A stretch of 64,000 nt of DNA from Patescibacteria group bacterium (GTDB lineage: Bacteria > Patescibacteriota > Patescibacteriia > UBA9570). Under the pieces are notes generated by a model. The model did no database searches. It saw only the letters and a program-made list of their open reading frames with translations, and was not told where the DNA came from. Shown here piece after piece: positions 9,824 through 47,159 of this stretch; the stretch's first letter is position 1; every line of letters starts with the position of its first letter. A program made the translations under genes and the position numbers. The stretch spans positions 11,103 to 75,102 of the forward strand of contig JBAYIY010000007.1 in the NCBI GenBank assembly GCA_041665365.1, given 5' to 3'.

Positions 9824-12800
9824 TTATTGTTGTCCCATCAATGCACCCATATCTACTCCAGAGATTCTGACTAGTAATGGTAGTAGTTTTTGCAACTCAG
9901 GTATGCGATAAATGTCTTCAGGTTTTTCGGTAACTAAGGCCGCCATTACTTGTCTTTGTAAACGTTGTTGTAAGGCTTCAAAATTACCACCACTTGAGGC
10001 TAGGGCTTTGATTAAATAGTGAAAGTTTTTATCTGGTGTGCTATGTGGTACGCGCATAATACTGCCCACGAGATCTTTAAATAAATCAGCCGTCGTGGCA
10101 TTATCTCGTAATGCCTTATCAATTACTTCTTGCCAAGTTGCAATAGAACTTCTTTGGCCGGTATATTCATGTACAATTCTTGCCACAGGTTCAGTTTCAC
10201 TGCGCAGGCCTTGTTTAATTAAAATTAATTGTACTGTGAATTCAAGAAAATCTTGCTTCATTTTAGTTGTTTCGCACCGTCCGACACTGCCAGCGTCAAT
10301 TAAACCATAACGTTCATGACCCGGACGCAGATCAACAATACTATTGCCGGCATGAGGGTCGGCATGAAAAATTCCATCATCAGCCACTTGATACAACCAA
10401 TCAATGGCGGCACCGGCTTGAGCCGCTTCAACATCAAAAGTCATATATGGTTCAAGTTCTTTATCAGTTGTACCGGCTGTTTGCAGGCGAATAATCTCAG
10501 CCATAGATAAACCTTCATAAAATTCCTCAACAATCAACTGAATGCGTTGAGCCTCACCCTCACCGCGTTCACGTAAATACAATACCTGCGGCACGGACAC
10601 TGGTAAAGCTAACTTACCGACCTGAATTGTGGCACCACGTTTACGTATTTGCTGACCCAAATCACGGGCGGCGGATGCTTCTTTACCGAAATCAAGCTCA
10701 TCGGTCACTAGTTGGCGTATTTCCGGTACAAACCAATCTGGAATGTTATAACCTTCATGCTGTAAGGCAATAACAACACCATCCAGTACAGTCATATCTT
10801 CCGTAAAATTGCGCGCTGTGTTTGGTCGTTCCACTTTAAAAGCCACCGGTTCACCTTTAGCTGTGGTAGCCTTATGCACTTGTTTAATTGAAGCACTGCC
10901 TCTGCATTCACCAATTTCAGTTAGTTGCACACCGTCAGGACGCGCTTGAAATAACTGAGCGGTTCGAGCATAAGCAAAGACACCTCTTTTATTAAACGGT
11001 GCGCATTTATCTCGTAAGTTTCCTAAATCGGTGCGGATGGTTTCATCGCTAATCAAATCAGGCCGTTCTGATAACACCTGACCAACTTTTACACCCACCA
11101 CGCCTAAACCCTGCAGCACCATACGCAAAGCTTCACCGGGGCGTAACTTTGTTTCACGAATTTTTACTTCGCGTAATTCTTCCAAAAGGTTAACCAAGAA
11201 TTCTACGCGGCGCGCTGGTGAATAACCGGACATGACTTCCTGAAAAATAATTTTACCAATGGTTTGCAGTGGGGGATTATCGGCTAAAGCTTCCATGAAG
11301 ACTAATTCAAAAGTATCTTGAGAAAATTTTTGTAGAGCTTCTTTATCTGGTGTGTGGTTATGACCAACATAAATTGAAAAGGGAGCCACTTCACAGATGC
11401 CACCTTCACCCAATAACGCTGAATAAAAAATGGTACGGCGTTCTTCGGAACTTAACGCCCAAAAGGCGGTGACTTTATCTTGCTCATTAATGTTAAAAGT
11501 TTTACTGGCTAAATAGCGATCATCTGGTAGATCACCACCTAACAACCATAATAAAACCTCAGCCCGTTTGCTTCGATCACTGAACATGGCTAAATAATGT
11601 TTCATTGTTTCGGTAGCGGCAAAAGTCGGTGGTTCACCCGGTGGAAAATCTCCTGGATGATTAGCTTGATAGCGATAGGTTAAACGTTCTAACTCACTAC
11701 ATTGCACTTCGGTGGTGGCTAAGTCTGTCATGAGCGCAAACAAGATTGAATCACGATGATGAGTAGCCTTAGGGAAGCGTATTAATACGTGATCCAATAC
11801 AGCATGAAAGGCTTTATCATTCGCGGCCGCCACCATGGCAGGTAACGGTTCAGCTACATTGCCAAGTGTGGCGACACTGGCTTGGTGGTAATCAACGCGT
11901 AAATGATCAATTTCTAAATCAACGGCTTGACGTTCATACATTTCGCGCAAACCTCCCGTCAGAGACACCGCTGTATCCGTTAAGAAATCCGCGATGATTT
12001 TTTTTTGCGGCACGGAAATAAGATCACCCAAGCGTACTAAACCACTCACTTGAACGCTGGGGTATTTATCCATGTACGCATCTTCAACTATATTGGCACC
12101 AGCTACAACAAAATGATCACGCAAACTAATTGTGCGAGACGCTAAACGAATATTCGCTTTGGCCAGTTGATCCGGCGAACAAAACTTATTAACCACTTGC
12201 CACAATTCATGTTGGGCCAACACATGTAAAAAATAATCGCGAAACATACTTGGTTCGGGCATTAATTCCAGCACGTGAGCTCGAGCAGCCTTAAGTGTGT
12301 CTGGTGCTGACTCCACTCGTTCTAGTTCTGGCAGTAATACTCGTGCTGCATATTTAGCTTTATACATCGGGTCAAGCATAGTTTCGCCCTTATCAGTGCG
12401 TTCAACCGTATCGGAAAACAACAGTAACTCCGCACTGGTTGGGTAAGCCTCCGCGGCAACTTTTTGTTCTTGTTTAAGTTCCCTATGACGCTGTGTCCAA
12501 ACTTTATCACTTACGCTACGGTATTCATATGGATGAGAAGAAGTGTCCCAAGTATGTTTACGTACATTTTCAGCTTCATCCTCCGTTATTTTACCACGAT
12601 CTAATAACCATTTCAGTTTCCAGGCAATACCCGCTGCTGTACCTTCGAAATAGTTGGTTTTAACATACCCATTCACCACATCAGCTGAGCGGTTTACTTC
12701 GGCACCATCACCCAGCTCGGCTTTCATTAAAGCCATGAGTTGTTCAAGTTCAGCTGGTGTGCTGCCGAGACGATCAGCTCTTAACGCCAAACAAAAGTTA

Positions 12801-14179
12801 CGGTAAAAACCTGGCTTGAGTTGTTGCATTTTTTCTAAAGCATCTGGTTCTTGAACAACGGCTTCTAGAATGTGCTTCAGTCTTAATACACGGTTTTTCC
12901 AAAACCACTCTTTGGCCTGTTCTACGACATGTTCAAATGCGGGAGGCGGTGGAAGGTTATTTGGAATATCTTCAATACCATGTTTGTTGATATGTATGTT
13001 TTTAGCAATGGCGCGAGAAGTGATATATCCTTTTGGTGCATCTCGTATTATATCTACCGGATTATCTGGAATATATGGAAAAGCTTCTTTTACACTGACC
13101 GCTAAATCTGCTACGGCCGCTACATCAAAATCACCGCTGGCAACATAGAGCCTAATTAGCGTATCATCATTTATTCCAGCCTCAGCATATTGGGCTTTTA
13201 ATCGATCAGGCGTGAAACATAGTTTATGTAATAATAAAGGCCAAGATAAACGTTTATCTTGATTTTGAGCATCATCAGTAGTGACTAAACTAGTCGGTAA
13301 CAGGTGCAAAATATCTTCCTGGCAAACTCTAGCGTGTTCACTTAACAATGGATTAGCGATTAACCATTGTAGTTCGGCATAATGTTTTGTAAGAACCCGT
13401 AAGTGTTCTGGTGCTTCGGTTTGCCACCGTTTACCCCGTACACCAATAGCTGCTTCCATTAATGGCATCAGCGCAATTAACTCTTCACGACAAGTGTCAG
13501 GATTTTTTGTGTACTCATTGATCAAACCAAGTACATATGGTAAGGCTCCATCTGCTAACTGTAACGCGGCCGTTTCTTGACGAGTTGGTTTCATAGCAAA
13601 CTCGTTATTACGTTCCATTTGCTGAAAACGTTCAACTATAGTAGTGGTGTGTGGTGAACGTTCTTTTTGCAAGGTGCGGACAGTTTCTTTAATATTATGT
13701 TTAGAGAAATATGCCCTAAATAAGGTAATCGTATAACCAAGCTCGGGCGGTGTAGCGGCAATAAAACGTAACATTGGTAGCTCGGGATGCTCTGTGGCGT
13801 GAGTTTGACACCAGTTCTGTAAATGAAGATAGCCATTACCCATTTCTATAAAATCATTACTTTGTAATTGGGTAGTTAACTTTTGATAATTAGCTGGTGG
13901 CCAAACGTGTATTAAATCACGTATGGCATATTCAACTAAACGTTGCCACTGGGCTAATTCAATATCTCTGTTAGCATATCTTCTAGATTCATAAAAACCG
14001 TTCAGGCGACTATCAAAATTATAATCAGTGTATTCACGTTCATCGCTGGTCGTTAAATAGGCTGTTGTGTTATCTCCATAATAACGAGAAGGTATGGGTA
14101 GATCTTGTCCGAATACAACTCGAGCCGAGTGTAATCTATCATGATCGGTTGTATTAATACTATTACCTAGCTTCGTCAT
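9824..14179 (-). CDS. giant (1451-aa) multidomain protein with a C-terminal UbiB/ABC1 (ADCK)-type atypical protein-kinase-like domain
   Basis: Motifs VKVGQVLSERPDL (KxGQ), SASIKQVHKA...VAFKVERP, FHADPHAGNSIV, LIDAGSVG (DFG-like); about 1000 aa of N-terminal sequence without recognisable domains. Confidence 0.6.
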   Translation of the reverse strand: MTKLGNSINTTDHDRLHSARVVFGQDLPIPSRYYGDNTTAYLTTSDEREYTDYNFDSRLNGFYESRRYANRDIELAQWQRLVEYAIRDLIHVWPPANYQKLTTQLQSNDFIEMGNGYLHLQNWCQTHATEHPELPMLRFIAATPPELGYTITLFRAYFSKHNIKETVRTLQKERSPHTTTIVERFQQMERNNEFAMKPTRQETAALQLADGALPYVLGLINEYTKNPDTCREELIALMPLMEAAIGVRGKRWQTEAPEHLRVLTKHYAELQWLIANPLLSEHARVCQEDILHLLPTSLVTTDDAQNQDKRLSWPLLLHKLCFTPDRLKAQYAEAGINDDTLIRLYVASGDFDVAAVADLAVSVKEAFPYIPDNPVDIIRDAPKGYITSRAIAKNIHINKHGIEDIPNNLPPPPAFEHVVEQAKEWFWKNRVLRLKHILEAVVQEPDALEKMQQLKPGFYRNFCLALRADRLGSTPAELEQLMALMKAELGDGAEVNRSADVVNGYVKTNYFEGTAAGIAWKLKWLLDRGKITEDEAENVRKHTWDTSSHPYEYRSVSDKVWTQRHRELKQEQKVAAEAYPTSAELLLFSDTVERTDKGETMLDPMYKAKYAARVLLPELERVESAPDTLKAARAHVLELMPEPSMFRDYFLHVLAQHELWQVVNKFCSPDQLAKANIRLASRTISLRDHFVVAGANIVEDAYMDKYPSVQVSGLVRLGDLISVPQKKIIADFLTDTAVSLTGGLREMYERQAVDLEIDHLRVDYHQASVATLGNVAEPLPAMVAAANDKAFHAVLDHVLIRFPKATHHRDSILFALMTDLATTEVQCSELERLTYRYQANHPGDFPPGEPPTFAATETMKHYLAMFSDRSKRAEVLLWLLGGDLPDDRYLASKTFNINEQDKVTAFWALSSEERRTIFYSALLGEGGICEVAPFSIYVGHNHTPDKEALQKFSQDTFELVFMEALADNPPLQTIGKIIFQEVMSGYSPARRVEFLVNLLEELREVKIRETKLRPGEALRMVLQGLGVVGVKVGQVLSERPDLISDETIRTDLGNLRDKCAPFNKRGVFAYARTAQLFQARPDGVQLTEIGECRGSASIKQVHKATTAKGEPVAFKVERPNTARNFTEDMTVLDGVVIALQHEGYNIPDWFVPEIRQLVTDELDFGKEASAARDLGQQIRKRGATIQVGKLALPVSVPQVLYLRERGEGEAQRIQLIVEEFYEGLSMAEIIRLQTAGTTDKELEPYMTFDVEAAQAGAAIDWLYQVADDGIFHADPHAGNSIVDLRPGHERYGLIDAGSVGRCETTKMKQDFLEFTVQLILIKQGLRSETEPVARIVHEYTGQRSSIATWQEVIDKALRDNATTADLFKDLVGSIMRVPHSTPDKNFHYLIKALASSGGNFEALQQRLQRQVMAALVTEKPEDIYRIPELQKLLPLLVRISGVDMGALMGQQ

Positions 14180-16292
14180 AGAAATTTATTTCGATGGGTC
14201 GACCACTGGCATCAGTAAACAAATCTCTCAATTCAGTTGCATCTTCGGCCACACCGGCGGCATACAATTCAGTCGCCAGACGATTCAATGGTCTTTGTAA
14301 TTCAGTCTCGTCAATGGTTGTTAAGTTTGATGGTTTTTTAAAAAAACGCGACATCAACCCAGCCAACCCGGTTGGCTTGTCCAACTCAACCAGAAAGTAA
14401 TTTTCGGGCAAACCAAGTTGCTCAGCCTTGTCTCTTAAAATGTTTACTATTTCTTGCAACCAGGCCGGCCGATTTGGTTCACTAAGGTTAATGCGTAAAC
14501 CTTCTTCCAACCACCGTTTAAACAAAACCCGTTTGATGTCTTTTTGATGAAAAAACGGTGGTTTATATACTGTTCCGGCCACAGTAGCCATGTGGGTTGA
14601 AGGTTTTTCTGGAATACCCCGAGCTAATTGCTGAATATAGGGGTGGTTCTGTAAAGTTTGTACAGTGCGCATGGCTGCCCCAATTTTACCGTGGTCTTGC
14701 GCGTGAATATTCAAACCTAGCGCACCGGTCATTACTTCAAGTAATGGTTTATGTAAATTATTAAAACGATCTACATAATCAAGGCGATCCCCTCGTGTAA
14801 AAGGTAGGTCACTTTGGGCATGTGTATAATCATACACCGGTAAAGTACGCATGACTGTTGGTACAACTTTCCACTGCTGCAAATCTTTTAAATCATCGAA
14901 TAGAATAACATCATGGGCAAATTTTGGATAAATAGTATCATGGGTGGCGCGGCGAAATAGCTCATCTTTAACGGTTTGTGTAACTGTAGTAACTCGTTCA
15001 CCTGTGACGTGTTCAATATGGTCTGGTGTAATAACCGCATCAAAATGATGTCGTAATAATTTTTGTAAACGTTGGTAAATTTTACCAAATCTGGTTTTGG
15101 ATAATCTTGTACCAGAACCAATCATGGCAGCATGTTGAAAAGGCTGAAAAGTTGATTCAAAAGAACGCGTCGGTGGTAATTGATACCCAGTGTTTATTGT
15201 AGCTGGTAGAGCTACTTGTTTTTCAGAGCGTGATAATCGCGCTTGTACAGTAGTGGCGAGTTCGGCTAACGATGATGGTATAGTTGGTAAGGCACTAGTC
15301 GTGATTGAATCAGTGGAAGTTTTGGGTGGTAACTCCTCGAGTAATTTTAAAGCGGCGTTTTTAAGGTCGATAGATTCTTGTCCGGTAAGTGTGTAGTGAA
15401 ATTCAAAACCGCGTAACCAGCGCTGGGCTAAATTAGCTATAAATGTGTCTTTATGTTGTTTAATCTTCGCTTTTTTATCAAAATGTGATTCTATTTTCCA
15501 GTATTTTAATGCGGCTGGATTAGTGTGATCAAATAGATCTTCCAATTTTGTAAATGGCTCAGTGGGTGGGAGTTCTGGAGGTACTAAAACAGCATGTTGA
15601 CGATGGAATTTAATCGCATCTGTCATTATAGTGCGATTAATACTGTCGGGATCATGCAATGTAGTATCTTCTGAAGTTGGGTTTTGGACTAAATCTTCTA
15701 AAACTTTACCGCGATAATCATTATCTGGTGAACGAGGTTGGGAAAACATTCTTGACTCAATGGCTAGTGGATTAATCAATGAACAATATAGACTTTCGCC
15801 CGATAAGGCTAAATTCGCTTCGTAAAGAATAGCGTTGTGATAACCGAATCGGTCATGTTCTAGTGCATCATACACGGCTGCCAGAGCAGTGCGCATATCA
15901 AGCTGTAATCGAAATACTTCTAAAGCCATTAAACCATCTCGAAAAGTGGCGCGAGGATTATTTTCTATATCATCGAGTATATTATTCCAATCTTCAGCAG
16001 TGCGAGCTACTTGTAATTGTTGTAACAGTTTTTCTCGAGCTAAATCTTTGGCGTCTTCTAGTGCCGCATCACTAAACAGTTGCTGCGGTTGATCGGCATT
16101 ATACACAATGCGTTCTGGGCGATGATACTCTTCTTCCAGTGCGGTTAAACGGTTCTGTGTGATGGGGTGAGTTTTTGTAAAATAATGTTCAATCACTTGT
16201 TTCCAGTTTGGGCGACCAGTGGCTTGCAGTAAGACACGTTGTAACTCAATGGCGGCTTGTGGATTATAGCCGGCTAAATCGGCGCCTTCCAT
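14163..16292 (-). CDS. large hypothetical protein (709 aa), co-directional with and overlapping the 1451-aa gene by 17 nt
   Basis: Long ORF, no recognisable motifs; upstream in-frame sequence IIGHELRHL lies between its ATG and the TAA of the preceding ORF. Confidence 0.5.
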   Translation of the reverse strand: MEGADLAGYNPQAAIELQRVLLQATGRPNWKQVIEHYFTKTHPITQNRLTALEEEYHRPERIVYNADQPQQLFSDAALEDAKDLAREKLLQQLQVARTAEDWNNILDDIENNPRATFRDGLMALEVFRLQLDMRTALAAVYDALEHDRFGYHNAILYEANLALSGESLYCSLINPLAIESRMFSQPRSPDNDYRGKVLEDLVQNPTSEDTTLHDPDSINRTIMTDAIKFHRQHAVLVPPELPPTEPFTKLEDLFDHTNPAALKYWKIESHFDKKAKIKQHKDTFIANLAQRWLRGFEFHYTLTGQESIDLKNAALKLLEELPPKTSTDSITTSALPTIPSSLAELATTVQARLSRSEKQVALPATINTGYQLPPTRSFESTFQPFQHAAMIGSGTRLSKTRFGKIYQRLQKLLRHHFDAVITPDHIEHVTGERVTTVTQTVKDELFRRATHDTIYPKFAHDVILFDDLKDLQQWKVVPTVMRTLPVYDYTHAQSDLPFTRGDRLDYVDRFNNLHKPLLEVMTGALGLNIHAQDHGKIGAAMRTVQTLQNHPYIQQLARGIPEKPSTHMATVAGTVYKPPFFHQKDIKRVLFKRWLEEGLRINLSEPNRPAWLQEIVNILRDKAEQLGLPENYFLVELDKPTGLAGLMSRFFKKPSNLTTIDETELQRPLNRLATELYAAGVAEDATELRDLFTDASGRPIEINFYDEAR

Positions 16293-16403
16293 GCCGGCTA
16301 AATCGGCATCATATTCAAAACGGACACTTTCATCAGTTGGTCTATCTGGTTTATCAGGTTGATATTTTTTTTGTTGGAGATGACGTAACTCATGTCCAAT
16401 AAT

Positions 16404-17069
16404 TTAAGCCAAATGATCTTTGGTAAAGACCTTTTTTTGTTCGACAAACATTTTATGCAACTGTGTAATGAACCCAATATTAACAAACACGTGCACTGGT
16501 TCGGTTGAAGGAACGGTGTAATCTTCATCTAATTTTTCAGTACGTAAAACATAAGCATTCATGTCTGTACTACGCGTTAACTCCAATAAAACTGGGCGCC
16601 GAAAACCCATCGCCTCAGACACATTGGCGACAATCTCACCAACTTCTTGATATATGACAGATTCACGTTGTTCAGCTTCTGTTAAAGTTTCAGTGGTCGT
16701 ACGTTTATATTCAAGTTGTAATCGTGTCCGCAAACGGCGGGTGGCTTCTTGTACAGGACGACGGCGTTCTAAAAACTCCTGGCGTTCCGGAACGGATTCA
16801 TCGCCATAATTAAGACGTTCACGATCAATCTCATAACGTAAGGCTCTAATCCACTCCACTGAGTGCGTGGGGTCTTTAAATTCTATTGTAGTTGAATCAC
16901 TTGTAGATTGTGTAAGTTGTTCCAGTGCGACACCGGCTAATTCACTAGTACGGGTATCAGACATCATCAGTCTGGTTAATATCAACAACGTGCGATCATC
17001 ACGCGAGAGCTCTAAAGTTAGTTCAGTACTCTCGCGTTGCTCGCCTCGTTTAGGTTTTATTTCAGGCAT
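16404..17069 (-). CDS. hypothetical protein (221 aa), in the same frame as the 709-aa ORF and separated from it by a single TAA
   Basis: ORF coordinates are in phase (37 sense codons between this ORF's stop at 16404-16406 and the ATG at 16290-16292). Confidence 0.45.
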   Translation of the reverse strand: MPEIKPKRGEQRESTELTLELSRDDRTLLILTRLMMSDTRTSELAGVALEQLTQSTSDSTTIEFKDPTHSVEWIRALRYEIDRERLNYGDESVPERQEFLERRRPVQEATRRLRTRLQLEYKRTTTETLTEAEQRESVIYQEVGEIVANVSEAMGFRRPVLLELTRSTDMNAYVLRTEKLDEDYTVPSTEPVHVFVNIGFITQLHKMFVEQKKVFTKDHLA

Positions 17070-17075
17070 GTGATG

Positions 17076-17651
17076 TTATACCAGATGCAACTTGTGTTCG
17101 ATTACCGTCACACGTTGATTGAGCTCGGTCACCTCAAACCGGTAAGCCACGTTGTCTTGGCGTAATTTAAGTTCATCCTGACCTTGTTCAAGATTAGATA
17201 ATCTATAATCAACTCGATCGAAGCGTTCATCGACCGAATCAAAACCCAGTTTAGTGGCCATGGCTAAATCATCTACCGTAGTAGTTAAATTATCCATTCT
17301 TGTGGATAAGCTATCTACTTTACCATCAACATGATCCACTTTAGTAGATAAACTATCAACCTTTGTATCTAAAATATCTGTTTTCGTCGATAAACCATCA
17401 ACTTTGGTATCTAAACTATCCATCCGTGTGGATAGAGTGTCAACTTTAGTGGTTAATTTATCCGTTCTCGTGGATAAACTATCTACAGTTTTAGTTAATC
17501 CATCCGTTTTTGTGGATGAAATACCAACTATATTAACTAAACTACTGACGATTGCTGTCAAACCGTCCATTTTGTCTGCTAGATTGTCTAGCGTGATTGT
17601 TTTCTTCATAAAGTGTTTCCCAATACTTTGGCGGCGCTTTTGTAAACACAC
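17076..17651 (-). CDS. coiled-coil protein with about 10 tandem 11-residue repeats (xKVDxLSTxxD)
   Basis: VDSLSTRTDKLTTKVDTLSTRMDSLDTKVDGLSTKTDILDTKVDSLSTKVDHVDGKVDSLSTRMDNLTTTVDDL; matching 33-bp periodicity in the DNA at 17290-17560. Confidence 0.55.
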   Translation of the reverse strand: MCLQKRRQSIGKHFMKKTITLDNLADKMDGLTAIVSSLVNIVGISSTKTDGLTKTVDSLSTRTDKLTTKVDTLSTRMDSLDTKVDGLSTKTDILDTKVDSLSTKVDHVDGKVDSLSTRMDNLTTTVDDLAMATKLGFDSVDERFDRVDYRLSNLEQGQDELKLRQDNVAYRFEVTELNQRVTVIEHKLHLV

Positions 17652-40220: not shown

Positions 40221-40760
40221 TGGGTAAACACCAGTTAGTCTCACACGAATCAGATGAGAACACCATCAAAGTGAAGGTGTTGCCATGTGGTTCGTCTGTA
40301 TAGCCGGTGATCAGCAATGATCGCTGGCTGTCATGAATCACTCAACCCGAAAGGGTTAAGCACATTTACAATCTACTTTCCTACTTCGACTCGTTTCACT
40401 CGCTCAGTATAAATTTATTGAGCATGTAAGCTTGTCGAATGATCATCGGTAGCGATATACAGACCTCATCAATATACATACTTCTTTGAGTACACCACCC
40501 TAGCCCTCCTATTCTAGGAGGGAATAAGAATAAATTTTCTTACTCCCTTCCTACAATAGGAAGGGCCGGGGATGGTGTATTCCGGAGAGGGATACGTATC
40601 CGGAGAGGTCTCCATATCGCTACCGATGAAACCAACAATATCGGAGCTCGGTTCCCCAACGGGGAGACATTCGTCGCGGCAATTTCGCCGTGATGTATGT
40701 CCACCCGGACGTGAACCGGGACCGATCGACTTCACTCGACTACATGGAGCTACGAAAACA
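40204..40760 (+). repeat. leader module copy 1 (~555 bp), a mosaic duplicate of 42546-43053, ending at the start codon of the first GC-rich gene; contains a family-B repeat bracketed by a 23-bp imperfect inverted repeat (ATCGGTAGCGATATACAGACCTC / GAGGTCTCCATATCGCTACCGAT)
   Basis: Shared blocks GGGGGTAAATTCCGGAGTGGGTAAACACCAGTTAGTCTCACACGAATCAGATGAGAACACCATCAAAGTGAAGGTGTTGCCATGTGGTTCG, AATCATCGGTAGCGATATACAGACCTCATCAA, the whole family-B element, and GAACCGGGACCGATCGACT...GGAGCTACGA.AATGACG. Confidence 0.8.
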
Positions 40761-42236
40761 ATGACGTTCAAGAACATCCTCGCGATCTTCACGTTCATCT
40801 TCGCCATTCTCGCCCCGGCGACCGTCGCCCAGGCCCAGGAGAAGTGGGAGGATCCAAAAGTGGGTCCGTTCACTCTCGGGTACTGGTCGAAGCTCGATGC
40901 CGGCGCGACCAGTGTCGACGCCGCGGCGGCCGGGATCATGAAGAACTTCAAGGAGTGTGAGAGCAAGTACGGCCAGGGTGGGTGCTACATCCAGTTCGAA
41001 TCATCTACTGACATCAACCGCTGGGACAACACCAAGAATGGCAAGGACGACGCATTGCACGGTGGGCTCGGAGAGGGACGCACCGCGGTCCTCAAGGACG
41101 CGGTGTTTTCTCGATCCGCAAGGATCAAGGAATACTCGGTCACCGACTACCCCCACCACGGTGCGAAAGATGGATGGCGGTACTCCTGGGCGACGATCAT
41201 GCCCAAGGAAGGTGCCTCCGCGATGCCGAAGGTGTCGGCCGACCCCAACAAGAGGTGGAGCTTCCTCACGGAAGTGCTCCTCCGCCAGACCGATAACCTC
41301 TGTCCCACGATGGTGCGGGCGGACGCGGTCACGCGAACCTACACCCTGCAGGGTCAAACCTGCGGGTGCAGCACGTTCGATGCAGTGCCCAGCACCCGCC
41401 AGTTGGAGGTCAGGAACGACCTCACCTGGTTGGGAAAGGTCGTCGCGGACCGCTCGAAGTGGTCCGACGCGAAGACTTTGACCTGGACGGAAGTCCGGGC
41501 CGCTCTCGAGGAGGGCACCGAGTCCCGCGTCATCGAAGTCGACGCGCTCGGCGATCCGTCCTCCACGCCCGACGGTCTGTCCGTTGAGTTCGTGGAGTCG
41601 GAGACCCTGCTCCGGGTGCAGTTCCCGGACAGGTGCTCGCCGATCCTCGACGCCGCGAAGGCAGAGGCCGACGCCAAGGCGCAAGCCAAGGCTCAGGCCG
41701 ACGCCGACGCCCGCGAGTCCGCAAGGCTCGCGGCGTACAACACCGACTTCATGGTCGGTGGGTCGGTCGCGGGTACGGGGACGTTCATCCCCAAGTACAG
41801 CCCCTTCAACCCGGGCAGGGGTTTCGACCTCGCCGGGCACGTCGAGGGCGGTGCGGTGATCGGCGGCGGGTACGGCGCGTGGGCTTTCGGGCTCGGCGTC
41901 GGCCCGTCGTGGGACCCGAACTGCCTGACCCCCGGCCAGGTTGACCTCGAGGCCTTCACCGGCCCGTGGCTCAACAGGCAGGGGAAGGTCGGGTTCTCCG
42001 CCTTCCTGAACGGATCTGCGGGCTTCACCATGTACAACGGTGAAGTCCTCACCCCGCGGTACCGCCTGGGTCTCAACCTGGGCGTGCCCGTGCAGGTGGA
42101 GCGTGAGCTCTACCTGGTTCCCCAGATCGGCCCCGTGGTCGACTGGGTGAGCGGGCAGGTGCAGGCGACCGGCGGCTTCGCGATCACCGAGCGAGTCGGG
42201 ATCGCGGGTGGTCTGCGGATCATCAAGACGTTCTGA
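40761..42236 (+). CDS. GC-rich, probably horizontally acquired secreted protein with a C-terminal OMP-like beta-barrel region (C-terminal Phe). The start is set at MTFKNILAIF; the ORF-track start at 40572 lies inside the repeat leader
   Basis: Signal peptide MTFKNILAIFTFIFAILAPATVAQA; AKAEADAKAQAKAQADADAR low-complexity linker; glycine- and aromatic-rich alternating C-terminal region ending ...GLRIIKTF; codon usage strongly GC3-biased, unlike flanking genes. Confidence 0.6.
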   Translation: MTFKNILAIFTFIFAILAPATVAQAQEKWEDPKVGPFTLGYWSKLDAGATSVDAAAAGIMKNFKECESKYGQGGCYIQFESSTDINRWDNTKNGKDDALHGGLGEGRTAVLKDAVFSRSARIKEYSVTDYPHHGAKDGWRYSWATIMPKEGASAMPKVSADPNKRWSFLTEVLLRQTDNLCPTMVRADAVTRTYTLQGQTCGCSTFDAVPSTRQLEVRNDLTWLGKVVADRSKWSDAKTLTWTEVRAALEEGTESRVIEVDALGDPSSTPDGLSVEFVESETLLRVQFPDRCSPILDAAKAEADAKAQAKAQADADARESARLAAYNTDFMVGGSVAGTGTFIPKYSPFNPGRGFDLAGHVEGGAVIGGGYGAWAFGLGVGPSWDPNCLTPGQVDLEAFTGPWLNRQGKVGFSAFLNGSAGFTMYNGEVLTPRYRLGLNLGVPVQVERELYLVPQIGPVVDWVSGQVQATGGFAITERVGIAGGLRIIKTF

Positions 42237-42562: not shown

Positions 42563-43053
42563 GGGTAAACACCAGTTAGTCTCACACGAATCAGATGAGA
42601 ACACCATCAAAGTGAAGGTGTTGCCATGTGGTTCGAAGAGTCATAGTCGATCAGCAATGATCGCTTGTGACCACGAAACACAATTTGTTCTTTAAAATCT
42701 TCTGCTAAGAATCATCGGTAGCGATATACAGACCTCATCAAGCATACACACTTCTTTGAGTACACCACCCTAGCCCCCCGCCTTGCCGGCGTGGCAGGTC
42801 CTATTCTAGGAGGGAATAAGAATAAATTTTCTTACTCCCTTCCTACAATAGGAAGGGCCGGGGATGGTGTATTCCGGAGAGGGATACGTATCCGGAGAGG
42901 TCTCCATATCGCTACCGGTGAAAACAATACCGGCGTGCTCGGTTCCCAGAATGGGAAAGATGCGGTTGTGGGAATGTTCCCATGACATGTGTTCTACCCT
43001 GTTCAAAAGAACCGGGACCGATCGACTACACAATTTCGACTGGAGCTACGACA
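42546..43053 (+). repeat. leader module copy 2 (~510 bp) preceding the second GC-rich gene
   Basis: See copy 1; the central segment differs (about 50 nt versus about 120 nt), and the first hairpin of the family-B element carries a CCCGCCTTGCCGGCGTGGCAGGT insertion. Confidence 0.8.
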
Positions 43054-43839
43054 ATGACGCTCAAAAACATCGTGATCTCGCTCGCGCTCGTCGTCGGTTG
43101 CAAGATGGGCCCGGTGCAGGAATGTGACTCGGACTCGGACTGCTTCGAAACCAACACCAACTCCGATACCGACACCGACGCGGACACGGACACGGACGCC
43201 GACGCTGATACGGACACGGACTCCGACACCGATACCACCGAAACCGACGTGGACAACGACGGCGACGGGTACACCGTGGACGGCGGGGACTGCAACGACG
43301 CCAACGCCAGCGTCCACCCGGGCGCGACCGAGTACTGCAACGGCGTCGACGACGACTGCAACGGGTCGATCGACGACAATGACACCGACGGGGACGGGTA
43401 CGTCTCCGACGACTGCACGTCATATGACGGAGTCGCCGGCCTCCCCGGTGGTGATTGCGCGGATTCGATCGGGACGACGGCGTCCTGGTCGAACAGCGAT
43501 ATCCACCCGGGGCAGTTGGAAATGTACGACTGGATCGACACTAACTGCGACGGCACCGCCGACGATGGATGTAGTATGTTGTGCGACACCGACGGCGACG
43601 GATACGAGAATTTCGAACAGGGCAGCGGGCCCGAGTTCGAGTGCGTGGACGCGTCGTTCGTGGCGGATCAGTCCGCCTCGAGCAGCCCGTTCGATACGAC
43701 GATCTCGTGGACGTATGCCTCCAGCGGAGTGGTTTACTCCGGTGTGAACGCAACGTGCGAAATGACGGCGGCCCAGCAGGTCGATCCGTCAACCTGGAGG
43801 ACGATCACGTCCATCCAGGCCGAGATGGCCACCCGCTAA
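43054..43839 (+). CDS. GC-rich, probably horizontally acquired lipoprotein with a (D-T/D-A)n linker and repeated Cys-rich MopE-type 'putative metal-binding' motifs
   Basis: Lipobox LALVVGC; DTDTDADTDTDADADTDTDSDTDT; DGDGYTVDGGDCNDANASVHPGATEYCNGVDDDCNG and DGDGYVSDDC...DTNCDGTADDGC repeats. Confidence 0.6.
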   Translation: MTLKNIVISLALVVGCKMGPVQECDSDSDCFETNTNSDTDTDADTDTDADADTDTDSDTDTTETDVDNDGDGYTVDGGDCNDANASVHPGATEYCNGVDDDCNGSIDDNDTDGDGYVSDDCTSYDGVAGLPGGDCADSIGTTASWSNSDIHPGQLEMYDWIDTNCDGTADDGCSMLCDTDGDGYENFEQGSGPEFECVDASFVADQSASSSPFDTTISWTYASSGVVYSGVNATCEMTAAQQVDPSTWRTITSIQAEMATR

Positions 43840-46103: not shown

Positions 46104-47159
46104 TTACTTGACGGCGACCGTAGGGTTCGCCACCACGAGGATACTCCCCATGATGGTCTCCACGTCGCCGGCGTAATTCCCGCCGGCATTGTGGAGGTCG
46201 ATCCCCTCGGCCTTCACCACCTCTTCCCGGACGCCGTCAGCGACCGGGAAAGCCACCTCGCCCTCGCCGTACGAATCGTCGACGACGAAGAAGAAATGAT
46301 CCCGGGCGACTTCACAAAGTCGTTTGCCCGGGAGAGTGGTCAGACTCGAACACTTGAACCCCTCCGGCAGCACGAGGATGCTGCCCATCGTGAGTTCCGG
46401 AATCGTTCCGGTGTACTCACTCAGGGCGTAGCTATCCCCGGAGCCGGCGAGGGGCCCGGTGAAGCAATCGTAGCCCGACGAGGCGCCATCGCCGCAAGAG
46501 AGGTGGGTATGATCCACCTCAATGGGCAACGGCCGCCCGATCGGGCCAGTCTGAGTCAATTCTCCCACACGCACCGCCTGGGTCGCGGTCGTGTGGGAGC
46601 CACCGTGAGCCCCAACCCAGCGGGTGGAGTCATATCCCTTCTCACACGCGCTGAACGGCGCGGAGTCGGGGAGGACCCACCCGGACGAGCCGTCGAAGTA
46701 GCTGATTTCAACAACGGTACCGTCAGGCTGCAGGGCCGTGACGATCCCATTGTTGTACAGATCATCCGACGTGTCCCTCATGGCGAAGGAATCGGGGAGG
46801 TAAACCTCCCTCGTTCTCCTGCCATCGGGGGCTGTCACGGTCACCGGTGACGAGTCTTTCGACCCGTCGAGGACAAAAACCGGGTCGATGTCGACCCAGT
46901 CAAGTCCTCCGTCCCAGTCCGTCTCGACCGTCCGGGCGATCTTGCGATCAACCTGGAGGTCACGGATCTGGAACGGCACCGAGGCCCAGCACTCGGCCGG
47001 GGTCTCGGTGTCGGTGTCCGCGTCAGTGTCAGAGTCGGTGTCCGTCTCCGCTTCGGGGCAGGTCGCCCCGGGCAGAGACGGATCACAATTGAGCTCTCCA
47101 CACCCCGCCACCAAAATGGTGACCAGGACGAGGAGCAGCTCGATGATGTAGCGCAACAT
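46104..47159 (-). CDS. GC-rich, probably horizontally acquired lipoprotein (351 aa) with a TDTDSDTDADTDTE linker
   Basis: Lipobox ILVAGC; good RBS AGGAGcagtcATG; GC-rich codon usage; several conserved Cys/His (HTHLSCGDG) but no confident family assignment. Confidence 0.55.
   Translation of the reverse strand: MLRYIIELLLVLVTILVAGCGELNCDPSLPGATCPEAETDTDSDTDADTDTETPAECWASVPFQIRDLQVDRKIARTVETDWDGGLDWVDIDPVFVLDGSKDSSPVTVTAPDGRRTREVYLPDSFAMRDTSDDLYNNGIVTALQPDGTVVEISYFDGSSGWVLPDSAPFSACEKGYDSTRWVGAHGGSHTTATQAVRVGELTQTGPIGRPLPIEVDHTHLSCGDGASSGYDCFTGPLAGSGDSYALSEYTGTIPELTMGSILVLPEGFKCSSLTTLPGKRLCEVARDHFFFVVDDSYGEGEVAFPVADGVREEVVKAEGIDLHNAGGNYAGDVETIMGSILVVANPTVAVK

Follow-up and report, generated by a model that had tools for sequence, protein, structure and literature searches.

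Background

UbiB/ABC1/ADCK proteins form an ancient and widespread family with links to human disease (COQ8A to ataxia, COQ8B to nephrotic syndrome). Their molecular mechanism is unsettled, with an ATPase that extracts lipids and a protein kinase as the competing views. Canonical UbiB is about 550 aa long and carries C-terminal transmembrane helices, and in COQ8 the KxGQ motif of the family occludes the substrate cleft. The proteases of the M48 family work for the most part at membranes or close to them. Here we describe a locus in which the two families meet. It lies in a 64,000 nt stretch of a Patescibacteria genome (GenBank GCA_041665365.1, contig JBAYIY010000007.1, positions 11,103 to 75,102; hereafter the window) and comprises a giant gene for an ABC1/UbiB-domain protein and, directly upstream of it, a giant gene for an M48 metalloprotease.

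The closest described systems are the UbiB/ABC1/ADCK family, the soluble M48 peptidases of the BepA type and the plastoglobule. In COQ8, which belongs to the first of these, the fold accounts for ATPase activity and for the exclusion of protein substrates, and the protein is proposed to couple ATP hydrolysis to prenyl-lipid extraction (PMC8346625). On plastoglobules and cyanobacterial lipid droplets, ABC1K proteins share their compartment with PGM48, an M48 protease (sll1280 in Synechocystis) that co-expression links directly to ABC1K7 and to ABC1K3 (PMC8956952, bioRxiv 10.1101/2021.02.05.430006, PMC12223511). This is the only known setting in which ABC1 and M48 proteins are functionally associated, and it shares with our locus the same two families, there in one compartment and co-expressed. 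The plastoglobule proteins are, however, separate, of normal size and bound to lipid droplets of photosynthetic organisms, with no physical coupling established in the cited papers, whereas the module described here forms a single operon or even a single polypeptide, has some 1,600 residues of additional scaffold and occurs in non-photosynthetic bacteria of the candidate phyla radiation (CPR).

Results and discussion

Layout of the locus

The window comes from a metagenome-assembled genome of Patescibacteria (CPR), and NCBI files its 1451-aa protein as 'AarF/UbiB family protein'. The first-pass annotation of this stretch had described four minus-strand open reading frames (ORFs) of 191, 221, 709 and 1451 aa, closely spaced or overlapping by 17 nt, as a likely four-gene operon. 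Our ORF check recovers all four at the same coordinates, with the same sizes and the same overlap. The interpretation changes: positions 9824-17069 are one conserved two-gene module of ABY1-type Patescibacteria, an M48 protease followed by an ABC1 protein. We hold this anatomy (domains, gene model and unit) with high confidence. Its parts are as follows.

9824..14179, minus strand: ABC1/UbiB-family giant gene, 1451 aa, intact (ORF; Pfam ABC1; full-length orthologues at 37-64 % identity)
14163..17069, minus strand: M48 metalloprotease giant gene, about 967 codons long and broken by a nonsense codon, spanning the 221-aa and 709-aa ORFs
16404-17069, minus strand: 221-aa ORF, the 5' part of the interrupted M48 gene
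14163-16292, minus strand: 709-aa ORF, the 3' part of the interrupted M48 gene
14163..14179, minus strand: 17 nt shared by the 3' end of the M48 gene and the 5' end of the ABC1 gene, with overlaps of 14-17 nt also in the carrier loci L001, L002, L003, L005, L010 and L011

For the source genome the annotation is thus corrected to one interrupted M48 gene in place of two hypothetical proteins, and to a two-gene module in place of a four-gene operon. The linkage of the M48 and ABC1 genes stands; the membership of the 191-aa coiled-coil ORF does not, as it is not conserved beside the pair. The overlap of 17 nt suggests that translation of the two genes may be coupled. A promoter and terminator scan of the window gave counts no higher than the shuffled expectation and holds no information on operon boundaries.

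An ABC1/UbiB domain in a giant protein

The first-pass annotation had recognised a UbiB/ABC1 kinase-like core in the C-terminal third of the 1451-aa protein, and library searches bear this out. Pfam PF03109 (ABC1) matches aa 1094-1319 at E=7.7e-26 (91.2 bits against a cut-off of 22.9), and the NCBIfam UbiB model TIGR01982 covers aa 972-1306 (E=8.5e-38). In the PDB, both sequence and profile searches return solved UbiB-family structures only, namely M. tuberculosis 5yjz, M. smegmatis MABP-1 7cy2 and COQ8A 4ped/5i35. The regions and signature motifs of the protein map to the window as follows.

9827..11266, minus strand: UbiB/ABC1 atypical kinase-like (ATPase) domain, aa 972-1451 (TIGR01982, Pfam and alignments to PDB 5yjz, 7cy2 and 4ped)
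11078..11089, minus strand: KxGQ motif K1031-V-G-Q1034, the UbiB-specific signature, aligned to KVGQ of 5yjz and 7cy2
10835..10837, minus strand: codon of K1115, the ATP-binding lysine of VAFKVERP, a stretch that pairs with VAVKIQYP in 5yjz and COQ8A; invariant
10343..10366, minus strand: catalytic loop H1272-A-D-P-H-A-G-N1279, aligned to HGDAHPGN of 5yjz
10289..10297, minus strand: D1295-A-G1297, the metal-binding DFG equivalent, aligned to DFG of 5yjz; D1295 and G1297 invariant (28 members)
11285..14179, minus strand: pre-ABC1 region, aa 1-965, a nearly all alpha-helical scaffold (AlphaFold2 model; no library match)

All four motifs quoted in the first-pass annotation, from KxGQ to IDAG, are there; they align to UbiB-family structures and are invariant across the 28 family members. 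The UbiB invariant Lys and Asp residues, which that annotation had proposed to check, align as K1115, D1274 and D1295 and do not vary. In the same family alignment the other residues of the catalytic loop (H1272, H1276, G1278 and N1279) are invariant together with D1274, as are E1161 and E1167 at the alpha-C glutamate position. A pattern scan did not find K.GQ at the expected site in the member P0037; the family alignment nonetheless scores K1031 and Q1034 as invariant in 28/28 members. The Ala-rich nucleotide loop GSASIKQVH aligns to ASASIGQVH, with a Lys where Gly is usual in ASI(G/K)QVH.

Compared with described UbiB/ABC1/ADCK proteins (E. coli UbiB, COQ8A/ADCK3, yeast Cqd1/Cqd2, 5yjz, 7cy2), the 1451-aa protein has the same complete kinase-like domain with all motifs, including the ExD/alpha-C glutamate. 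It differs in being three times longer, in keeping a helical N-terminal region of about 965 aa and in being paired or fused with an M48 protease at every locus checked. It also has no membrane helices: hydropathy gives neither a transmembrane helix nor a signal peptide in either of the two large proteins, the highest Kyte-Doolittle mean over 19 residues being 1.33, below the threshold of 1.6. The description of the 1451-aa protein as soluble-looking is therefore upheld.

Judged by its sequence, the 1451-aa protein is a true ABC1/UbiB-domain protein, yet it is not a canonical UbiB, as the first-pass annotation had also held, because it stays far under the equivalog cut-off (130 against 487.55 bits for TIGR01982), lacks membrane helices and has about 965 extra residues. 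The PRK04750 score is likewise under its equivalog cut-off (105 against 667 bits). One could still picture an ordinary UbiB of quinone biosynthesis with accidental extra sequence and unrelated hypothetical neighbours, as TIGR01982 is the best NCBIfam match and the NCBI name points the same way. We give this next to no credence: beside the low score and the missing C-terminal helices, the N-terminal region is conserved and has invariant residues, the M48 pairing or fusion recurs at every checkable locus, and there are no ubi genes in the window.

The N-terminal region has no match in Pfam, NCBIfam or PDB sequences, in agreement with the first-pass statement that roughly 1000 residues lack a recognisable domain. 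Its AlphaFold2 model (pLDDT, the predicted local distance difference test, of 63; pTM, the predicted template modelling score, of 0.44; 6-sequence alignment) is almost all helix, with two small hairpins at 678-712. Foldseek against the PDB returned generic karyopherin and Integrator alpha-solenoids at best (E=0.02, TM<=0.16), which we dismissed as meaningless. Mapping by hidden Markov model (HMM) finds positions of about 430-965 kept family-wide, fused proteins included, and 12 residues are invariant in the 28 sequences (W252, W272, W313, N496, D648, E756, D810, E857, W878, W907, E913 and R914).

The upstream gene is an interrupted M48 metalloprotease

The first-pass annotation had listed the 221-aa and 709-aa ORFs as separate proteins and had missed a Peptidase_M48 domain. 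The two ORFs lie in one frame and are parted by a single TAA (translation ...TKDHLA*IIGHELRHLQQ...RFEYDADLAGME...). Joined, the product aligns end to end with intact upstream orthologues of 951-992 aa at 32-57 % identity (46-48 % to the orthologues of 978 and 989 aa, 57 % to P0009/P0010). The two ORFs are thus a single gene. The intact orthologues pass the Pfam threshold for Peptidase_M48 (PF01435) with 34.5-47 bits against a cut-off of 20.3, and the fused proteins described below reach 40-59 bits. Since the stop cuts the domain in two, neither of the window's own fragments matches Peptidase_M48 at E<=0.01. The catalytic motifs and the stop lie as follows.

16380..16394, minus strand: HExxH zinc-binding and catalytic motif H226-E-L-R-H230, 3' of the stop; H226, E227 and H230 invariant in 20/20 sequences
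16302..16316, minus strand: E252-Y-D-A-D256, the M48 third-ligand region, aligned to E..AD of 3c37; E252, A255 and D256 invariant in 20/20
16404-16406, minus strand: in-frame TAA at codon 222, four codons before HExxH, in place of a small residue

Further along, the M48-side alignment has T-H301-P302...R307, with H301, P302 and R307 again invariant in 20/20 sequences. The M48 family profile finds the Geobacter peptidase 3c37 in the PDB (E=4e-8, across E-x-x-AD...AGYNP...THP..R). An AlphaFold2 model of P0009, the closest intact orthologue (pLDDT 61, pTM 0.49), matches E. coli BepA (6ait/6sar) at E=1.3e-4 and probability 1.00 over 470-520 columns, covering the protease and the next helical domain, and matches Geobacter 3c37 at TM 0.53.

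Taken together, these results define the upstream protein as a soluble protein of about 970 aa in which aa ~140-320 are a BepA-like Peptidase_M48 domain (HExxH...E-x-x-AD...THP), followed by about 650 helical residues. With BepA/YfgC-type enzymes (6ait/6sar; Geobacter 3c37) it has HExxH, E-x-x-AD and THP in common, and the model suggests that its first ~500 residues correspond to the BepA M48 domain plus the following helical domain, which resembles tetratricopeptide repeats. In contrast to periplasmic BepA it has no signal peptide, which places it in the cytoplasm. It is also larger than BepA by a further ~450 residues without a match, is fused to a UbiB-type protein or probably coupled to one in translation and, in the window, is interrupted by a stop. 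Since the catalytic residues are invariant on both the M48 and the ABC1 side, both enzymes have probably been under selection as catalysts in the family.

The two halves are one unit

A word-indexed search of 5.8 billion proteins returned only five full-length relatives of the 1451-aa protein, at 37-64 % identity, each directly downstream of an M48 gene. Wherever the upstream gene can be read, the pair is adjacent (9/9 loci: L001-L005, L007, L010, L011 and L013); next to the overlapping genes listed above, L004 has a gap of 23 nt. The pair is kept at 33 % identity in L007, a Candidatus Uhrbacteria genome (CAIMOJ010000038.1). As a side observation, the L007 contig has 64 % GC, the other carrier contigs 44-49 % and the window about 41 %, so that the module is kept across differing base compositions.

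A profile of the N-terminal 965 residues, run exhaustively with HMMER against 1.84 billion representatives, matched only 28 proteins. The locus is accordingly rare and not a widespread housekeeping operon; had it been one of known function, this would have spoken against the first-pass reading. Among the profile matches, nine of 1,400-1,540 aa have the same architecture as the window protein, five are fragments of 100-863 aa (including P0024 of 406 aa and P0027 of 863 aa), one has 1,673 aa and fifteen have 2,243-2,450 aa. The long proteins are natural fusions. A Pfam scan of three of them found an N-terminal Peptidase_M48 and a C-terminal ABC1 domain in 3/3, and BLASTP, HMM and motif scans took in 13 of the 15. 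All 13 have N-terminal homology to the window M48 protein with HExxH intact, and C-terminal homology to the window ABC1 protein (profile positions ~430-1450) with H[AS]DxHxGN. E[YF][DG]AD is present in 12 of the 13, and the KxGQ pattern in all but P0037.

The boundary between the halves can also lie elsewhere. In L013 a 709-aa M48 protein precedes the 1,673-aa member, and the summed length (709+1673=2382) is close to that in the window (967+1451=2418). Fusion, alternative fission and constant total length lead us to conclude that the M48 and ABC1 halves act as one functional unit, about 2,400 residues in all.

In agreement with the first-pass view of the locus as uncharacterised, we found no description of an M48-UbiB/ABC1 combination in the literature on UbiB/ABC1 in CPR/Patescibacteria or on UbiB-metalloprotease fusions, nor in the family libraries searched. 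Both domains are well known; what we found described nowhere is their obligate pairing or fusion, the conserved scaffold of about 1,600 residues, the placement in the cytoplasm and the confinement to ABY1-type Patescibacteria.

Carriers, synteny and inheritance

All named members of the family are Patescibacteria (Candidatus Kerfeldbacteria, Candidatus Uhrbacteria and 'Patescibacteria group'). On the contig with the fused protein P0022, ribosomal protein L19 is nearest to Candidatus Magasanikbacteria among named relatives, at 75-80 % identity. Only 2 of 185,579 species-representative genomes matched.

The first-pass annotation had likened the locus to effector-like or toxin-like loci and had proposed a comparison of synteny in related genomes. 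That comparison places the pair in housekeeping contexts of two types. The first is RsmB..pair..TypA, as in the window, where L28, an RsmB-type methyltransferase, the coiled-coil ORF, M48, ABC1 and TypA/BipA form a co-directional run; the L003 contig, which ends upstream, retains TypA, and the L010 contig, which ends downstream, retains RsmB. The second is S6-SSB-EF-P..pair..pyruvate kinase-PPDK (pyruvate phosphate dikinase) in L001 and L011, whose M48 proteins are merely 33 % identical despite the common synteny. Between the window and L003 the identity is 82 % for TypA, 63 % for ABC1 and 57 % for M48. Stable housekeeping synteny and this pattern of identities indicate that the pair has been inherited vertically rather than as a mobile island. 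An all-against-all BLASTP of the neighbours across loci revealed no recurrent third component, and a scan of viral contigs found no relatives of the pair.

These observations bear on whether the pair could be a conflict system of anti-phage defence or abortive infection, with the helical region as sensor, the UbiB domain as nucleoside-triphosphatase (NTPase) switch and M48 as effector. The large size, the helical repeat-like regions and the combination of an NTPase with a protease do resemble many sensor-effector defence proteins. The family is also patchy and rare, its protease half is knocked out here as often happens to costly defence genes, and there is a transposase directly upstream of the pair in L011 and a leucine-rich repeat (LRR) kinase directly downstream in L002. 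We nevertheless consider a conflict system unlikely. Neither the ABC1 protein nor the M48 orthologue nor the 709-aa ORF matches a PADLOC-DB 2.0 family at E<=0.1; viral relatives are missing; and the neighbours are housekeeping genes in stable synteny across deep divergence, not defence islands. The pair is, in addition, single-copy and diverges in proportion to its neighbour genes.

Secretion of the proteins as effector or toxin from an episymbiont into its host cell would be closer to the first-pass suggestion. Cultivated CPR members are episymbionts, so that host association of the source organism is plausible, and effectors with kinase folds or metalloprotease domains are common in pathogens. 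The organism is a CPR bacterium, and the proteins are giant and lineage-restricted, with regions lacking a fold match. Still, we rate this idea as very improbable, and the effector-like or toxin-like reading is not sustained by the data. Neither protein has a hydrophobic N-terminus, signal peptide or transmembrane segment by hydropathy, and no secretion-system genes lie nearby, the neighbours in the window being L28, RsmB, TypA and Suf (the SIMPL and SufCBDS genes lie on the strand opposite the M48-ABC1 run). There are no features of polymorphic toxins or immunity genes, and the genomic position is stable. In COQ8, moreover, the UbiB fold occludes protein substrates (PMC8346625).

Several neighbours of single loci deserve mention in their own right. 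The gene next upstream of the pair in L011, on the other strand, encodes an rve-family integrase/transposase (L011:5817-6689), the S6-SSB-EF-P..PK-PPDK synteny being otherwise kept. In L002 (L002:11846-13015) a 389-aa gene for an LRR and Ser/Thr protein-kinase protein begins at the ABC1 stop codon (Pfam LRR_8 E=2e-20, Pkinase E=7e-13) and was not seen at other loci. The Magasanikbacteria-like locus L009 (L009:7932-22504) has a fused gene of 2377 aa followed by a 1462-aa ORF without a Pfam match or BLASTP similarity to the window proteins; both are flanked by genes resembling ATP-citrate lyase and succinyl-CoA ligase (ATP-grasp_2/Citrate_bind, CoA_binding/Ligase_CoA) and by a Citrate_synt-domain gene.

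Proposed function

The explanation that best fits the whole, to which we assign a probability of roughly 0.55, is an M48 protease that resides in the cytoplasm, is passed on vertically and is coupled to an ATPase of the UbiB type. As to mechanism, the ATPase activity of the COQ8 fold, the action of M48 proteases near membranes and the co-residence of ABC1K with PGM48 together lead us to favour an ATP-regulated proteolytic machine, which we put forward tentatively and by analogy, and which could well be wrong. The UbiB-type domain is predicted to bind and hydrolyse ATP and, by way of the long helical scaffold, would gate or position the M48 protease. The outcome would be a cytoplasmic proteolytic machine under the control of ATP and possibly of a lipid.

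It is conceivable that the ABC1 domain is instead a true protein kinase that phosphorylates the protease or its substrates and is not an ATPase motor. For the plant protein AtABC1K6, Mn2+-dependent protein kinase activity has been reported (PMC8956952), and all phosphoryl-transfer residues are invariant in our family. We judge this improbable, as the KxGQ motif, which occludes the substrate cleft in COQ8, is there and invariant; sequence alone, for its part, does not separate kinase from ATPase.

Several points weigh against the coupled protease and ATPase that we prefer. ATPase activity, protease activity and their coupling are all read from sequence and analogy, and fusion tells of functional linkage, not of the direction of regulation. 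The plastoglobule parallel is one of co-localisation and co-expression between proteins of unrelated length, not of homologous assembly. CPR bacteria are generally held to lack quinones, so that any lipid ligand is hypothetical. About 1,600 residues of the assembly are helical scaffold without a fold match, for which a further, undetected activity is conceivable, and confidence in the two AlphaFold2 models is low to moderate (pLDDT 61-63, alignments of only 6-7 sequences). Finally, the protease half is interrupted in the window, so that the proposed mechanism describes the family and not this strain.

The preferred reading has consequences beyond this locus. A natural 'Rosetta stone' fusion in which neither catalytic centre varies puts forward a direct partner for UbiB and supplies a testable model, in minimal CPR bacteria. 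It also provides an evolutionary argument that the co-occurrence of ABC1K and PGM48 on plastoglobules and lipid droplets reflects functional coupling. We speculate, as a doubtful proposition only, that the M48-scaffold-UbiB assembly of about 2,400 residues may represent a new class of ATP-dependent or lipid-gated regulatory protease, in which the UbiB ATPase would take the role that AAA+ modules have in FtsH and Lon. If this were true, the fused CPR proteins would be the first direct physical evidence that UbiB/ABC1 acts through a partner M48 protease. The same mechanism would then lie behind the unexplained association of ABC1K with PGM48 and, more broadly, behind the function of the UbiB family.

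The nonsense codon in the M48 gene of the window

At the position of the TAA closer relatives have A, S or G. No ATG, GTG or TTG occurs between the TAA and HExxH, and the 709-aa ORF, with its mechanically assigned start, begins downstream of both HExxH and EYDAD. NCBI records a 746-aa 'M48 family metalloprotease' (MFA6475332.1) that starts at ATT 16401-16403, directly after the TAA; such a start would place HExxH in a separate polypeptide, so that termination-reinitiation might conceivably give a split yet working protease, and we saw no obvious ribosome-binding site upstream of it. The 221-aa product is recorded in NCBI, JGI, Logan and ENA.

The TAA appears to be both real and recent. An independent JGI contig of 6.5 kb (L012) is 99.6 % identical to the window and has the same codon, which in this contig-level comparison makes an assembly error unlikely as its source. 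An alternative genetic code was ruled out, as flanking genes such as TypA are full-length under table 11 and align end to end with their orthologues; no code in which TAA is sense is known from this bacterial group. The ratio of M48 to ABC1 identity between the window and its relatives is 0.90, as in pairs in which both genes are intact (0.88-0.93). The lesion is therefore recent, and an old pseudogene, in which the window M48 gene would evolve faster, was ruled out by the same ratio. In this strain the M48-ABC1 machine has probably lost its protease activity or, at best, is pieced together from fragments.

Apart from an N-gap, L012 differs from the window only by a 1-nt deletion in an A-run within the M48 gene (window 14339; L012:2701). 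It shifts the frame of the last ~55 M48 codons, and the ABC1 start no longer overlaps the M48 gene. Either the population has a second lesion in this gene, or the deletion is a sequencing error in a homopolymer.

The coiled-coil ORF and other genes of the window

One further ORF lies directly upstream of the module.

17076..17651, minus strand: coiled-coil heptad-repeat ORF, 191 aa, co-directional and ending 6 nt before the M48 start; a neighbour only

Its description as a coiled-coil repeat protein is correct: it has about 11 heptads of the form L-[STD]-T-[KR]-x-D-x, for which a tandem repeat of 21/42 nt at 17334-17420 codes. Translation probably begins not at the GTG listed but at the ATG at 17609 (MKKTITLDNL...). 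The exact 191-aa sequence is not in a collection of 15 billion proteins, and scans of Pfam, PADLOC and NCBIfam gave generic coiled-coil matches only; the PADLOC matches to DruC, JetC and LmuB were dismissed as noise of this kind. The ORF is absent upstream of the pair in L001, L002, L010 and L011. In L010 its position is taken by a CorA gene on the opposite strand, and the pair must therefore have its own promoter there. We leave the coiled-coil ORF out of the conserved module.

Elsewhere in the window, three genes of 58-70 % GC stand out in a genome of about 40 % GC: 40572-42236 (+), 42982-43839 (+) and 46104-47159 (-). They lie between Wzz, Wzy_C O-antigen-ligase and GT4 glycosyltransferase genes, are not of low complexity and have signal-peptide or lipobox-like N-termini. 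One of them contains MopE-type Cu-binding repeats (PF11617, E=7e-17). These genes appear to stem either from recent horizontal transfer out of a donor of high GC or from chimeric assembly.

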